Below, piece after piece: positions 4,895 through 10,999 of a DNA stretch of 64,000 bases. Positions within the stretch are counted from its first letter, which is position 1. Each line of letters opens with the position of its first letter. A program made the translations under genes and the position numbers. The stretch is from a virus (taxonomy: Duplodnaviria; Caudoviricetes). The stretch covers positions 1 to 64,000 of the IMG/VR virus record IMGVR_UViG_3300028588_000015; one strand, given 5' to 3'. The notes under the pieces were generated by a model. The model made no database searches. It was not told where the DNA came from and saw nothing but the letters and a program-made list of their open reading frames with translations.

Positions 4895-5674
4895 ATGGCT
4901 GACCTCAACCTGTTCGCTACCATCAATGAAGCCCTGAACGCACGCGAGGAAGCGCCGAAACGGCACCCGCTGCACGCCCTGTCGGGCTTCAAGGCATCCG
5001 ATGTCTGGGACTACCGTACCAACTGGCAACATGAAGACGCGATGCGCACTATCAACACGTTGCGTGACGAGGCTTTGAAAGATGCCATCCAGACCCGCTT
5101 AGTACGAGCCCACACCATTGTCGATACCCTGTCCGGCTACATCTCCAAGCTGACCGTCGCTGGCGGCACTGAACCATTGATCGACATCGAATATACGCAA
5201 AAACACTATGAGGCCGTGCTCACCGAGGCGGCCAAGTTCGATTACGCTGGCGCCAACTTGGATGAATTCTTCGCGCTTCTGGAATTCATCTTGACGCACA
5301 AGAACCCGCTGTTCATCTACGAAGCTATCGACTGGGTCATCACCGACCAGATCATCCCTGTCATCGAGCAGGAAACGGCACGCGACAAGTTCATGATGTT
5401 GCGCGAAGTCCTCGAGATGGAAGTCCCGGAACAGATCAAGATGATCCGCAACGCGCACCTGCTGGCGCAGCGCGATGCGCTGGGGCAAGCGGCGAAAACG
5501 CCGTATGGCCACACCATCGATTTCGGCGAGCCCATCGACATCGACAGCGCCATCACCGAACCGCCAATCGGCGTCGAGGAAGCCAGTAACATCATCGCGC
5601 AGGCGGCCGGGCAGGCGCAAACCGTGTCGATCGATGCAGCCACCGTTCAGGCCGGCATGCCGAAACCGGAGTAA
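4895..5674 (+). CDS. Hypothetical protein
   Basis: 259-aa ORF, AAGGAG RBS, strong C-ending codon bias. Confidence 0.8.
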   Translation: MADLNLFATINEALNAREEAPKRHPLHALSGFKASDVWDYRTNWQHEDAMRTINTLRDEALKDAIQTRLVRAHTIVDTLSGYISKLTVAGGTEPLIDIEYTQKHYEAVLTEAAKFDYAGANLDEFFALLEFILTHKNPLFIYEAIDWVITDQIIPVIEQETARDKFMMLREVLEMEVPEQIKMIRNAHLLAQRDALGQAAKTPYGHTIDFGEPIDIDSAITEPPIGVEEASNIIAQAAGQAQTVSIDAATVQAGMPKPE

Positions 5675-6661: not shown

Positions 6662-7468
6662 TTAACGATTGCCGCCGATCTGTTGCCGCAGGAAGCGTTC
6701 CCACGACTCGACGTCGTTCATGAGTGCAATCTTGCCCCAACGTTCTTTGAGCATGGTTTTGTAGAGTTCGTTACACTCTTTGAACTCCATCACCATGTCT
6801 TTGATCGCGCCCAACTGTTGACCACCCACCAGTTGGCTGTAGTCCAATTCTAACGCCAGTTCCACATAGATGTGGGCTTTGACGGCGTACAGCACCAGTT
6901 CTGCAAACTTGTGATAACTCTTCAGTTGCAGATGCGACATGTTGTCATCATTAGCGAAGATGCAGCGCAGGTAGCAGTAACCCGGTAACAAGGTCGGGTC
7001 GCGTACCGCCACCACGTTTTCGCCGATGAGTTGTACCTTGGCGGTCGAGATGTTGGGAATCGTCCCGTGCGCATCCATCATGCCTTGTGCGATGTTCAAT
7101 AGCGCCGAACCATTCGACAGCGTTTGCGCCCCCCCATAGCTCAGTGAGTCTGGGCTGGTGAAGGTGATGTTGAGAGCCGACAGAATGCTGCGTCCTTGGG
7201 TGCGGCTTTTGGGAATACGGTAGACGGTGGTGAAGTCGTCCGTCCGGTCTGTTTCCAAACCGCGCAAGTCCACGTAACCTTGCGCGCCACCCATCAAGCC
7301 TACGTCGCGCAGGACGCGCGGACGGATTACTTCATGCATGATGCGTTCATCGATTGAAACCGGTGCTCTCCCCCAAGTACTCGACTGTTGCGGCTTGAAA
7401 ACAATCTCCAGCAAACGACGCGGGATCTCCCGTTTGACTTCATCCAGCGCAGTTGATATCGGGTTCAT
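6662..7468 (-). CDS. Conserved phiKZ-like hypothetical protein, divergent from phuZ
   Basis: 268-aa ORF, GGAGGGG RBS; position next to phuZ as in phiKZ-like phages. Confidence 0.75.
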   Translation of the reverse strand: MNPISTALDEVKREIPRRLLEIVFKPQQSSTWGRAPVSIDERIMHEVIRPRVLRDVGLMGGAQGYVDLRGLETDRTDDFTTVYRIPKSRTQGRSILSALNITFTSPDSLSYGGAQTLSNGSALLNIAQGMMDAHGTIPNISTAKVQLIGENVVAVRDPTLLPGYCYLRCIFANDDNMSHLQLKSYHKFAELVLYAVKAHIYVELALELDYSQLVGGQQLGAIKDMVMEFKECNELYKTMLKERWGKIALMNDVESWERFLRQQIGGNR

Positions 7469-7490
7469 AGACCCCTCCTAAAAATATTTG

Positions 7491-7511
7491 GACACATATT
7501 ACCTAAGTGAA
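7491..7511 (+). promoter_or_regulatory. CACATAT-N7-GTGA promoter-like motif for phuZ
   Basis: GACACATATTACCTAAGTGAA; contains TATTAC, the reported phiKZ early-promoter core. Confidence 0.7.
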
Positions 7512-7604
7512 TCACATACGATTCGCGAAGCTTTAACACTAAATTTTAACTGTGTTGTTTTAGGTTATGTACCAAAAGCAACATCAAAAATGAAAGAGGA
7601 AAAA

Positions 7605-8612
7605 ATGAACGACAAGAACGTTAACACCATCCGCGCGTATAACTTCGGCGGTCTGGGTTTCAACATCGGTGCCCAGCTGGAAACCTTCCGCGACCACGCG
7701 ATCAAGGCCACGGCGCAACTCGACATCGCCTACGCCGACACCAGCGACTCGGACATGCAAGCCGAGATCGACGTTGCCAACTGTTTCTTCTTGCCCGGCG
7801 CCGCCGGCTCCGGCAAGTTCCAAGGTCAACACCTGGACGCGATCGATGCCCATGCCAAGGCCTTCCTGCAAAACTTCAAGCCCTCGGAAACCCTGAACAT
7901 CGTGGTCTCGTCGGCCAGCGGCGGCTCCGGCCCGGCATTCGCGTCGACCATCGTCTCCGAACTGCTCGACGCAGGTAAGAACGTGATCGTCATCGTCGTC
8001 GGTACCACGGCCGACAAGCGCGAAATCACCAACACCCGCAACAACGTGCGCAGCTACATCAACATCGCCGAAGACACCGACAAACCGGTACCGATCGCGT
8101 ACTTCCAGAACAGCACCGCCACGCCGCGCGCTGCGGTCGACAAGGCAATCGTCGCCCTGGTCGGTTCGCTGTGCGTGCTGTTCTCCGGCCAGAACCATGG
8201 CCTGGACAAGCAGGACCTGTACAACTGGCTGCACTTCAACGAGAACAAGACCACGTCCTACGGTGCGCGCATCGCGCAGCTGAGCATGTTCGAAGGCGAC
8301 GACCACATCGGCAACATCGGCAACGTGATCACGGTCGCCACCCTGTCTTCCCAGAAGTCGGGCCACGAAATCGAGCAGACGCCGGAATACCAGGTCGTCG
8401 GCCGCATCCCGGAAGACGCCACCCAGGTCATCATCGAGGCGACCCCGATCCACTTCGTGATCAGCACCGGCCGCTTCGCCGAAGTCCTGAAGTCGCTCGA
8501 CGACAAGCTCGTCGAGATCAACCGTGCACGAGAGGCGGTTGTCGATACGCTGTCCAGCAACATGGGTGACGCGAAAGCGAAAGCCAACAAGCGGGGCATC
8601 GTTGTCGACTGA
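7605..8612 (+). CDS. phuZ: PhuZ phage tubulin
   Basis: Tubulin/FtsZ motifs FGGLGFNIG, GAAGSGK and SASGGSG; short C-terminal tail ending GIVVD; ATG at 7605 with GAGG RBS. Confidence 0.93.
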   Translation: MNDKNVNTIRAYNFGGLGFNIGAQLETFRDHAIKATAQLDIAYADTSDSDMQAEIDVANCFFLPGAAGSGKFQGQHLDAIDAHAKAFLQNFKPSETLNIVVSSASGGSGPAFASTIVSELLDAGKNVIVIVVGTTADKREITNTRNNVRSYINIAEDTDKPVPIAYFQNSTATPRAAVDKAIVALVGSLCVLFSGQNHGLDKQDLYNWLHFNENKTTSYGARIAQLSMFEGDDHIGNIGNVITVATLSSQKSGHEIEQTPEYQVVGRIPEDATQVIIEATPIHFVISTGRFAEVLKSLDDKLVEINRAREAVVDTLSSNMGDAKAKANKRGIVVD

Positions 8613-9343
8613 TGCGTCTCGCGTGGTGTTAGTCACAGGCGGCTCCTTGTGGGTGCGGCTGGGGTTGGCCGCAGCCGCACTACTGACGGGTGCCGGTATG
8701 GTGCTGATGTGTCGGGACGAACTTCCGGCGCAAGAAGCCTCGACCGGTGAAGGTGTTGTCGAGACATTCGACGCATTTGCCTCTACCCGCCTGACTCGAT
8801 CCTTTGCTGAACGTATGCTCGACATCCGTCCGGAATACGCAGGCGATTACGACTGGACTTGGGAAACCGACCCGGCCGTATTGTCACGCTCGATCGACGA
8901 CACCATGCCATCCTCGCCCGGCGTTTGGTCAACGCCGCGGCCTCAATCAATGACCATTGATCCGAACGCCGGCCGCCACAAGGAATCGGACCTTGTTAGG
9001 CAACGGAGTTACGTGATCTTCGGTCCAGTTGAGTCGCGGGGTGGATGGCCCGCAGACCGTAGGACGAAGGGATCGAACCGTTCCTTCTGAACTGGAATTA
9101 GACCAGTCGCGTTAACAACCTGCACTCACCGAGTGGCAGGGGATCGCGTCCACTTGCACCATCGCCGTATCCGAACCACCCACTTACCTGTTACGACGGG
9201 TGAGGGCTGAAATTAGGACCGAGCTTTGGGGTGTAACGCAGATGATCCAGTGAGGGGTGCTATCCGTGCCGCAGAGTGGTGTCATGCCACAATGCAATTA
9301 GCGCCGTAAAGTCACCCCTCACACCAATCCAAGTAGTATCAAA
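8613..9343 (+). ncRNA. Candidate large structured non-coding RNA
   Basis: Many perfect or GU-containing helices, e.g. 8653-61/8672-80, 8644-52/8976-84, 8695-703/8901-09, 9024-30/9090-96, 9183-91/9196-204 with a UACG loop, 9250-59/9313-22; no well-supported CDS. Confidence 0.7.
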
Positions 9344-9452
9344 GTCGAGACGGGCGGATGTTGGTTGGACGCACAGGCGAAAGACGAGAAATCGTGCGAG
9401 TACCTGCGATCTTTAATAGAGACCCGAAGGTTCGATTCCTTCTCTCGACACC
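9344..9452 (+). ncRNA. tRNA-Leu-like element with the anticodon loop replaced by a 25-nt insert
   Basis: Acceptor GTCGAGA/TCTCGAC, discriminator A9450 then CC; Leu-type D arm GCGG..TTGG..CGC; anticodon stem CAGG/CCTG; long variable arm TCTTT-AAT-AGAGA; T arm GAAGG-TTCGATT-CCTTC. Confidence 0.8.
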
Positions 9453-9470
9453 GTTATGAAAGGAGTACAG

Positions 9471-9740
9471 ATGAAATACATCATCACACCGAGTTTCTTA
9501 ACTGTCGTTAATGATGACGGTGAAGAATTGAATGTGCACATATATCCCAGCGAATATGCTGTACTGAGTCACGAAGGCAGAACACTACTAATGATTCAAG
9601 CCGCAAAGGACCCCAGTTCGTTTACCACGTTACCGCACACGAAGCAGGACGTTAAAGAAGCTGTCTTCAATCTCGTATCAACTGCAAGGTACGTTACCAG
9701 AAGAAACGGTATCGACATGCCGTTGTGGTTAAAACCGTAA
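9471..9740 (+). CDS. Hypothetical protein
   Basis: ATG at 9471 with AAGGAG RBS, 20 nt after the tRNA-like element. Confidence 0.75.
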   Translation: MKYIITPSFLTVVNDDGEELNVHIYPSEYAVLSHEGRTLLMIQAAKDPSSFTTLPHTKQDVKEAVFNLVSTARYVTRRNGIDMPLWLKP

Positions 9741-9742
9741 GA

Positions 9743-9793
9743 GGTTTCTTGTCGCCCTTCTTGTCAGGGGTAGCAAGAAACCTTTTTATGCCG
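9743..9793 (+). terminator. Terminator with TTATGCCG flank
   Basis: GGTTTCTTG..CCCT/AGGG..CAAGAAACC, T tract, TTATGCCG at 9786-93. Confidence 0.7.
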
Positions 9794-9854
9794 TGTAATA
9801 AAAAACACCATATGCTAATTTTATGTGGGGTACCCATCTGAGAAAGGAGAGGAC

Positions 9855-10226
9855 ATGCATGTCCGTGCTTGGCTGATCCAAAGCATTGCGGGGTATCTGG
9901 CGGACCTTGAACCGTATTTAACCCAAGCCCTAGCTAAACACCATATTGAACAGAAAGAGGATTTTGTTCTGTGGTTAGTGCGTCAAGAGCTACTGTCGAT
10001 CTATTGCTTGTTCGAACATCGTGCTTTTTTGGCAAGCACGCGGTATTTCAAGGTCTATTCTGATTTACAGGAAAATGTGCCGTTCAACATACAGAAATGC
10101 TTTACGCACTATTTTCGCGCACCCCGTCTTTTCGACGGCGGTCCAGTTGAAGTGAATTTACGGTCCCATCACGTTGTCTGTGTTGGGTATCTGACAAACC
10201 TTGAGAAGTACGATCCCAAAAAATGA
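9855..10226 (+). CDS. Hypothetical protein
   Basis: ORF 9825..10226; ATG at 9855 after GGAGAGG; overlaps the next gene. Confidence 0.7.
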   Translation: MHVRAWLIQSIAGYLADLEPYLTQALAKHHIEQKEDFVLWLVRQELLSIYCLFEHRAFLASTRYFKVYSDLQENVPFNIQKCFTHYFRAPRLFDGGPVEVNLRSHHVVCVGYLTNLEKYDPKK

Positions 10227-10999
10227 TTGACGAAAAATACCCGATCAAACAAGTAGCAATCGTGGAAATCATGGGGGTGGCTGTAGCGCTCCATGAATAC
10301 TACTCGAAGTACCTGATTGCGCCGCCCGGCGGCGTGTACCTGCGTAATAGCTTCAAACCGGTGTTGGTGCCCAATCAGAAATACTACCAGCGCGTTATCA
10401 CGGACACCTCGAGCGGGAACCAGTTGGTAACGATGGTGCCGATCAATTTCGATGACCCATTAACCGAGGTACAAGGCGCTGTTTTTGATGAGAATGGCGT
10501 ACTCCTTGTTTCAGCGCACGCCATCCACATGCTGCGGCCGGAGCCACTGATGCCGGTGGTAGCGACCGAACTGATCCTTGACCTTCTGAACCTTGAGCTG
10601 AATAAGCTTCAGGCATGGGTGCCACACGGTGTCGATCGTAAATTGGAATCTAAAAATAGCGCATATGAAGTTATTATGCGCTACCTTACACCGGAAGCCA
10701 AGGATGCGATTGCCAACGACAACATCCCAAAGACGGGTCCAATGCGTCGCGATATTGCTACCAATGTTGAACTGCTCGAAGAACTGGTGCGCAATCAACC
10801 CGTGCTGGTCGATCTGTTTGAAGACATTCTCCGCCACATGGCGGTGCTGCGTAAACGCATTGTGTCATTCGTGGGTGAAGATGTCTGGTGCGTGCATTTC
10901 ATGGAACATTTGGCACACGGCGCCATTTCGCTGTCCAAGAGCGTCGACTATCGCATCATTGACTGGCACGAAAAGAACGGCGTGCCGATCGATTACTAA
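10223..10999 (+). CDS. Hypothetical protein (phiKZ-like cluster between phuZ and the DNA polymerase)
   Basis: 258-aa ORF in a tightly coupled operon. Confidence 0.75.
   Translation: MIDEKYPIKQVAIVEIMGVAVALHEYYSKYLIAPPGGVYLRNSFKPVLVPNQKYYQRVITDTSSGNQLVTMVPINFDDPLTEVQGAVFDENGVLLVSAHAIHMLRPEPLMPVVATELILDLLNLELNKLQAWVPHGVDRKLESKNSAYEVIMRYLTPEAKDAIANDNIPKTGPMRRDIATNVELLEELVRNQPVLVDLFEDILRHMAVLRKRIVSFVGEDVWCVHFMEHLAHGAISLSKSVDYRIIDWHEKNGVPIDY

Follow-up and report, generated by a model that had tools for sequence, protein, structure and literature searches.

In the 64-kb window analysed here, taken from the start of a 225.5-kb IMG/VR virus record of a leaf-litter jumbo phage (IMGVR_UViG_3300028588_000015), the tubulin gene phuZ is followed by a large structured RNA that belongs to a new family. 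We consider it likely, at a probability of roughly 60%, that this is a stable RNA carried on the messenger RNA (mRNA) of a small gene, with its structured part lying behind, and partly under, the unselected tail of that gene's open reading frame (ORF). A sequence-only reading of the window had proposed a single non-coding RNA of 730 nucleotides (nt) at 8613-9343. A large ornate RNA does lie behind phuZ, but it spans only ~430 nt (~8902-9328), the first ~290 nt being taken up by a protein gene. The features on which the argument turns are as follows.

7605-8612, plus strand: phuZ, phage tubulin gene, 335 amino acids (aa) (PHROG 4733 'tubulin PhuZ', E 6.5e-74; Pfam TubZ_C_2)
8623-9090, plus strand: small ORF, 155 aa in the window (conserved start, codon-position bias, ratio of nonsynonymous to synonymous differences, pN/pS)
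8902-9328, plus strand: structured RNA, ~430 nt (alignment in 12 relatives, covariation, fold z-score, no Rfam match)
9344-9453, plus strand: optional tRNA-like module, 110 nt (RNAalifold cloverleaf on four copies)
8438-9305, strand not shown by the contigs: stretch under metatranscriptome contigs (three runs)

Conservation behind phuZ in related phages

A search with PhuZ returned eight proteins at 57-69% identity, and a profile of the small ORF added two further contigs. With duplicates removed, the comparison set held 12 sequences representing about eight distinct lineages: the window, L001, L007, L008, L009, L010, L012, L014, L024, L025 and the partial L016 and L017. Ten of them extend to the 3' end of the RNA and the site of the module. 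The relatives share a gene order in which a DUF7484 gene on the minus strand and phuZ are followed by a stretch of ~700 nt, where gene callers report at most one short gene. Across this set 8902-9328 can be aligned over its full length, and the RNA occupies the equivalent position in all relatives, as a single copy per genome.

Covariance models of the central block (R1) and of the 3' domain (R2) found no second copy in the phage's own genome, and no copy in the complete genomes of the Ralstonia phages RP12, RSL2 and FLC1-1B or in two distant PhuZ contigs. In the more distant PhuZ phages (these three and two IMG/VR contigs), phuZ is followed by only 120-240 nt or by a terminator. BLASTN against 50,697 phage records gave only short phuZ matches, to Ralstonia jumbo phages, and matches of the size of the T arm; an exact motif scan of IMG/VR gave nothing beyond an already known relative; and scanning metagenomes with the PhuZ profile brought in one more short contig, which ends just past phuZ. 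Judged from these alignments and searches, the RNA is kept in a clade of about ten metagenomic jumbo phages that encode PhuZ. This clade has no known cultured member, and Burkholderiales hosts are hinted at solely by the phuZ resemblance to Ralstonia phages.

Helices supported by compensatory changes

The region 8902-9330 has a folding energy of -168.8 kcal/mol (z -3.14), matched by one of 100 shuffles, and about 20 helices are common to the 12 related sequences. Their arrangement in the window is listed below, all on the plus strand, with lengths in base pairs (bp) where given.

8919-9036: 5' domain, made of H1 and a multi-branch closed by Px, inside which lie H2, Py and H3 with a 3-bp extension
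8919-25/8931-37: H1, with a bulge in relatives
8951-54 and 8956-59 with 9026-29 and 9033-36: Px, closing the 5' multi-branch
8971-75/9021-25: Py, inside the multi-branch
8978-83/8991-96: H3 hairpin, carrying the 3-bp extension
9036-9106: three-hairpin region with H4, H5 and H6
9036-40/9049-53: H4, with a conserved GUGRAG-type loop
9066-72/9081-87: H5
9092-95/9103-06: H6, with compensatory changes in 5/5 pairs
9119-9248: central domain, with H7, PL1, PL2 and PM enclosing short inner helices and H8
9119-27/9131-40: H7, with a bulged G and an NCC triloop
9141-45/9244-48: PL1, long-range
9146-49/9236-39: PL2, long-range, outside model R1
9156-60/9230-34: PM, long-range, outside model R1
9183-91/9196-9204: H8
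9250-9328: 3' domain, a long irregular hairpin of P3a, an inner helix, GCA/UGC and H9
9250-59/9313-22: P3a
9265-70/9301-06: invariant inner helix of the 3' domain
9271-73/9293-95: GCA/UGC of the 3' domain
9276-79/9287-90: tip hairpin H9

In plain MAFFT alignments of the whole RNA or of the 5' block, insertions and deletions (indels) led RNAalifold to overlook helices or draw them wrongly; we used separate blocks, realignment with covariance models and ribosum scoring instead. Searching for duplexes in free register against window shuffles failed to discriminate helices of 3-5 bp and returned wrong registers; its results were used only for P3a, H3 and H8.

In the central block (model R1, alignment A10), 96.8% of cells were paired versus 82.7% in shuffles and 28-50% in controls in which the pairing was slid, and 16 of 27 pairs had changed on both sides. 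The 3' domain (model R2, alignment A11) gave 95.3% paired versus 78.9% shuffled (slid controls 17-44%), with double changes in 6 of 13 pairs. For the 5' domain, scored by our own script on the same measures, the values were 88.5% versus 78.4% (slid controls 26-38%), with 9 of 24 pairs doubly changed. None of 500 shuffles reached the observed paired share or covariation score in any of the three blocks. The proposed RNA had been expected to covary in relatives, and it did so strongly in the 5', central and 3' blocks, with compensatory helices beyond both the shuffled and the slid controls. Of these lines of evidence, the slid controls and the independent double changes make the stronger argument than the shuffles.

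Individual helices follow the same pattern. P3a forms 9-10 of its 10 pairs in 9/10 sequences. Read from the alignments, the stems of H4 and H5 differ between relatives yet stay paired; all five positions of Py have changed between two sequence types (CCGAU/AUCGG versus GGCCG/CGGUC); PL2 has gone from GCAG/CUGC to GCGU/ACGC; and PM occurs as CCAUC/GAUGG, CCACC/GGUGG, UCACC/GGUGA, GCACC/GGUGU and UAUUC/GAGUA. Pairing between the H1 loop (8926-30) and 9055-59, kept in 11 of 12 sequences with one-sided changes only, is a candidate pseudoknot. Columns 32 and 137 of A10 form a G-U pair in 9/11 sequences; because conserved G-U pairs would be C-A on the opposite strand, the RNA is read from the plus strand.

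All the helices that the sequence-only reading had listed lie in the window where it placed them and are complementary there, one of them by way of a G-U pair. As RNA structure, those from ~8905 on are conserved, but the earlier ones are not kept in relatives. The hairpins at 8919-25/8931-37, GCGGG/CCCGC, GAAGGGA/TTCCTTC, 9119-40, 9183-9204 and 9250-59/9313-22 persist with compensatory changes. Not kept in relatives are the helices of the coding part (8653-61/8672-80 and 8739-44/8758-63) and the long-range pairings 8644-52/8976-84 and 8695-703/8901-09. Two more (9024-30/9090-96 and 8850-56/9103-09) were dropped because covarying helices, Px2 and H6 (9092-95/9103-06), compete with them. The pseudoknots suggested by crossing long-range helices fall with those helices, which are specific to the window.

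Some smaller observations concern this structure. Single-stranded ACCA (9323-26) follows the 3' helix in 9/10 sequences and may mimic a tRNA acceptor end, which we offer as a lead rather than a finding. The 3' flank of H3 (8996-9003 in the window) reads UAAGGAAAAG in most sequences and UAAGGAGG or UAAGGAGC in L016 (~2150-2165) and L017 (~2295-2310). Its UAAGGA(G) resembles a Shine-Dalgarno sequence and is half paired in the H3 extension, with no conserved start codon following. A kissing contact between the H8 loop and GCCGUAA was dropped as inconsistent across relatives.

L007 (4515-5260) and L008 (4515-5380) encode an identical PhuZ protein (P0003) but differ strongly in H8, in the 3' domain and in the presence of the tRNA-like module, so the 3' half of the RNA has been exchanged by recombination.

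Apparent accumulation in leaf-litter metatranscriptomes

The sequence was found in one DNA run (X1) and three leaf-litter metatranscriptome runs (X2-X4), from four studies. The RNA appears to accumulate in all three metatranscriptomes, judged from contigs that give no ends, strand or true level. Within 7000-10400, coverage in the RNA runs was limited to 8438-9305 and was deepest over the folded part (9001-9305). X2 yielded contigs at 8438-8659, 8672-8982 and 9004-9283 with word depths of 4.2, 13 and 44.2; X3 yielded 8453-8659, 8678-8953 and 9001-9305 at depths of 8.0, 16.4 and 20.7; and X4 yielded a single contig, 9002-9176. The RNA runs gave no contigs over the tRNA-like module, the genes downstream or the body of phuZ, and for the relative L001 no RNA run was listed. 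The DNA run X1 showed an even word depth of 16.3 from ~7230 to 10400, apart from a break at 8607-8662. Since contaminating DNA would cover the whole region, the signal is RNA, apparently far more abundant than the flanking messages. The depth pattern would fit decay graded towards a protected structure at the 3' end, or a mixture of full message and processed RNA.

The contigs lend no support to the co-expression with phuZ that the sequence-only reading had supposed: in the RNA runs they begin at 8438-8453 and leave the body of phuZ uncovered. A promoter or structure within the 3' end of phuZ, considered as an explanation for the contig start at ~8440, was dropped for want of synonymous constraint there; synonymous change runs through the 3' end of phuZ without a drop, which indicates no overlapping element. 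The DNA contigs break (8606-8663) just before a perfect 9-bp inverted repeat at 8653-8680, and the RNA contigs break inside it (8660-8671); the breaks at this repeat are probably an effect of assembly and not biology.

Small protein gene at the start of the gap

The first ~290 nt of the apparent gap are, on the pattern of substitutions, a protein gene under purifying selection. Counted from the first base of the stop codon of phuZ, its GTG start lies at 13 nt in eight sequences and at 10 or 22 nt in three others. The product opens with V-V/A-I-I/L-G-G-G (VVILGGG) and continues through a hydrophobic segment, whose Kyte-Doolittle mean over 15 residues is 2.0-2.5 in most sequences, and a variable acidic linker to the conserved motif W-x-TDPAVLSRPIEDTMP, which ends at ~8910 (TMP codons 8902-8910). 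Differences at the three codon positions were.33/.15/.66 over the first 10 codons and.18/.13/.45 over the last 22 codons up to TMP; after TMP they were.35/.28/.36, with no third-position excess. Over the last 20 codons, which hold the motif, pN/pS was 0.17, versus 0.80 after the motif, and pS was 0.67 before TMP versus 0.42 after it, synonymous sites thus being more conserved past TMP. Within the motif, Arg is encoded by CGC, CGG, CGA, CGT or AGA and Leu by TTG, TTA, CTA, CTG or CTC. A third-position excess with pN below pS was found for 8623-~8910 and not for ~8910-9328. Gene callers report the small ORF in relatives; it matches no Pfam or PHROG family, and no relatives of it were found outside this clade.

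Selection on the protein is visible only to ~8910, and the frame stays open onward through the first RNA helices to a stop at 9088-9090. The synonymous-biased conservation that the sequence-only reading had set against a structured RNA is present up to ~8910 but absent after it, where the RNA begins. The coding part (8613-8901) folds no better than its shuffles (z -1.12). There is no clear Shine-Dalgarno sequence ahead of the GTG, where ribosomes would probably re-initiate, 13 nt past the stop of phuZ. Fusion of PhuZ and the small ORF by a +1 frameshift was dropped, as no slippery site was seen at the stop and re-initiation is simpler. The protein may carry a signal peptide or membrane anchor, as an Arg/Ser-rich stretch ahead of the hydrophobic segment and, in several sequences, an A-x-A-like end after it would suggest, and may perhaps be a secreted or membrane partner encoded beside the spindle tubulin. 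The hydrophobic segment is absent from the L012 and L024 proteins.

These data bear on two ways of treating the whole stretch as one kind of sequence. That 8613-9343 is a single non-coding RNA with an untranslated ORF is quite improbable: the RNA-run contigs do cover the ORF and the folded part alike, the GTG lacks a clear Shine-Dalgarno sequence and no homologue of known function was found, but the strong third-position bias, the low pN/pS of the motif and the exchanges between CGN and AGA for Arg and between TTR and CTN for Leu are those of a protein gene, and in the same 5' part the window helices are not kept in relatives and the fold reaches a z of only -1.12. The opposite view, that the stretch codes for protein throughout, in this or another frame, with the helices as by-products, strikes us as barely plausible. 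The frame is indeed open to 9090 in the window and for 30-80 codons past TMP in relatives; after TMP, however, codon periodicity is gone, pN/pS stands at 0.8, indels (past ~8910) are not multiples of three, stop positions vary, 9090-9328 holds no conserved ORF, and compensatory changes alter the amino acids on both helix strands.

Comparison with known RNA families

Rfam 15 gave no match to the whole window at gathering score, and relaxing the limit to E 10 for 8400-9600 and to E 1 for eight relatives yielded chance matches only, so the novelty that had been proposed held in the window and in these relatives. No covariance-model match was obtained to GOLLD, ROOL, OLE, raiA, HEARO or the other large Rfam RNAs. 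ARAGORN found no tRNA or transfer-messenger RNA (tmRNA) in the window, in L001 or in the whole genome; with Rfam also negative and the tRNA-like module self-contained, the RNA does not qualify as a tmRNA. The earlier remark that signatures of RNase P and of group I and group II introns are missing agrees with the Rfam models, none of which matched. For RNase P RNA there was also no pair of P4 strands; for group I introns, no Intron_gpI match in the window region or in eight relatives and no exon frame to rejoin; and for group II introns, no conserved GUGYG 5' end or domain V-like hairpin in the alignment. Searches of the literature gave no account of an RNA downstream of phuZ.

It thus appears very unlikely that the stretch is a ribozyme that splices or cleaves itself, be it a new one or a very divergent intron of group I or II, or that it is the RNA of a mobile element. 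Size and helix density do fall within the range of group I introns, and the swap of the 3' half and module between L007 and L008 is a modular exchange. The models for Intron_gpI, group II introns and ribozymes found nothing at these limits (E 10 for the window, E 1 for relatives), however, and GUGYG, a domain V-like hairpin and a continuous exon frame are all missing. The gene that follows is equipped with a ribosome-binding site and start codon of its own, and the RNA sits at the same position in all relatives, in one copy per genome.

The family is new, and by kind, as a large phage RNA of unassigned function, it stands beside GOLLD and ROOL, the large ornate RNAs of bacteria and phages that are represented in Rfam and in cryo-EM structures (PMC12286853). 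Like these, it is phage-borne, exceeds 400 nt, has many helices with strong covariation and no assigned function, and in some genomes adjoins a tRNA-type element. Unlike them, it matches neither model in sequence or structure, is smaller than GOLLD, lies fused to the back of a protein gene that overlaps it, and is restricted to a single clade of jumbo phages that encode PhuZ.

tRNA-like module

In four of the ten sequences that reach this point, a module of 107-118 nt follows 16-18 nt after the RNA; it is absent from L001, L007, L009, L010, L014 and L025. The copies lie as follows.

Window: 9344-9453
L008: 5236-5344
L012 (L012/13): 5230-5336
L024: 2785-2902

RNAalifold on the four copies gives a cloverleaf with a 7-bp acceptor stem, a D arm, a long variable arm (3 to 8 bp across copies) and a T arm (GGTTCGATTCC). 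In place of the anticodon loop stands an extended arm with a GAAA cap, and this arm shows compensatory changes. The module thus resembles a tRNA in its acceptor stem, D arm, canonical T arm and discriminator base followed by CC, and differs from one in lacking a 7-nt anticodon loop and in having the GAAA-capped arm with an AGUA/GAA internal loop. It scores 17 bits on the Rfam tRNA model (RF00005), below the cut-off of 29, and is negative by ARAGORN. The 225-kb phage genome has no tRNA gene and no T-arm motif besides the module. A phage-encoded CCA-adding enzyme, RtcB and Ro were considered as partners; none is present in the genome.

In the vertebrate MALAT1-mascRNA pair, the 3' end of a large RNA is made by an RNase P cut in front of a tRNA-like element. 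The phage arrangement is similar in that a large structured RNA is followed, 16-18 nt on, by a tRNA-like element unable to decode. It differs in that the module is optional, the RNA behind phuZ has no triple-helix element and the RNA-run contigs stop before the junction. Where the module is present, host RNase P would cut at ~9343/9344 and so set the 3' end of the large RNA.

A stable RNA or part of a message

The small ORF and the RNA domain lie in one plus-strand transcription unit, which ends at a terminator-like hairpin at ~9743-9790. No terminator-like site was found on the plus strand between phuZ and the stretch, as had been noted from the letters. We favour a stable RNA carried on this message: its compact fold would shield this part of the transcript from host RNases, allowing it to accumulate as a stable RNA, and the RNA would then act in its own right, most likely by binding one or more proteins as a scaffold or decoy during infection, not by controlling a neighbouring gene. 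It is not a leader of the next gene, because a terminator follows directly in L012 and L024.

Several points weigh against this account. Contig depth is a poor measure of RNA level and comes without strand or ends, and the expression evidence is from one habitat and one phage. The transcript spans the ORF as well, and what is stable may be the entire mRNA instead of a processed RNA. In every sequence the frame remains open for 30 to more than 60 codons into the RNA, where translating ribosomes may unfold the 5' domain, and the functions of ORF and RNA may be coupled rather than separate. Kinship among the 12 sequences inflates the shuffle tests, to which the slid controls are only a partial answer, and PL2, PM, Py and the pseudoknot rest on alignment reading rather than a formal test.

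The chief rival, which we regard as possible but somewhat unlikely, is that the fold works purely in cis, as a giant stabiliser at the 3' end of the mRNA or as a translational control of the small ORF or of the flanking genes, with no function in trans. The RNA-run contigs include the ORF, and their depth steps up towards the 3' end, as expected of a 3' structure that blocks exonucleases; coverage is nevertheless deepest at the greatest distance from the start of the ORF. In all relatives the first helices are overlapped by the ORF, and 7-9 nt separate the end of the conserved peptide from the base of H1 (9 nt to its paired core in the window), so that a ribosome there would open H1. An architecture of ~20 helices with invariant internal loops over ~430 nt, however, far exceeds the needs of a stabiliser or operator. 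The Shine-Dalgarno-like UAAGGA(G), half paired in the H3 extension, would suit a control element, but in most relatives no start codon follows it, and in L012 and L024 there is no following gene at all.

A bolder version of the stable-RNA reading would make this a new functional class of RNA in nucleus-forming jumbo phages, a ribozyme or else a particle like GOLLD or ROOL, made of RNA alone or of RNA and protein. Folding would be coupled to translation of the ORF, and the 3' end (a helix with ACCA behind it and, in some genomes, the tRNA-like module) would imitate the acceptor end of a tRNA and be set by host tRNA-processing enzymes. Taken with all these parts, we find it doubtful.

To our knowledge, large intricate RNAs that are neither ribosomal nor ribozymes are rare, and the families found so far (OLE, GOLLD, ROOL and raiA) are each puzzling. 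The present family has a fixed site behind the gene of the spindle tubulin, ~20 helices mostly supported by comparison and an unusually clear expression signal in nature. The presence or absence of the tRNA-like module between genomes provides a natural experiment, and if a partner or activity is found, the RNA could expose an RNA-based step in the phage's takeover of the cell. The locus also illustrates that a seemingly gene-free gap can conceal a small protein gene whose frame enters an RNA structure.

Neighbouring genes

Two further features close the region.

9471-9740, plus strand: following gene, encoding a small protein (MKYIITPS...) behind a ribosome-binding site of its own, with a homologue at the equivalent place in most relatives
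9743-9808, directly 3' of the 9471-9740 gene: terminator-like hairpin and AT-rich motif, conserved in L001, L010, L012 and L024

The 9471-9740 gene is the one missing in L012 and L024, where the terminator comes directly after the tRNA-like module. The hairpin at 9743-9808, which a simple terminator scan overlooked, reads GTTTCTTG...CAAGAAAC followed by a T run, and the AT-rich motif TTTTATGCCGTGTAATAAAAAACAC occurs once in the window; together they are probably a terminator-plus-promoter cassette that closes the phuZ unit. G+C content is 58-63% over phuZ, the small ORF and the RNA (7600-9340) versus 40-48% in the flanks. In L008 only, a TnpB/IS605 OrfB-like gene (Pfam OrfB_IS605, Cas12f1-like_TNB) lies at 7810-8017, ~3 kb downstream of phuZ.

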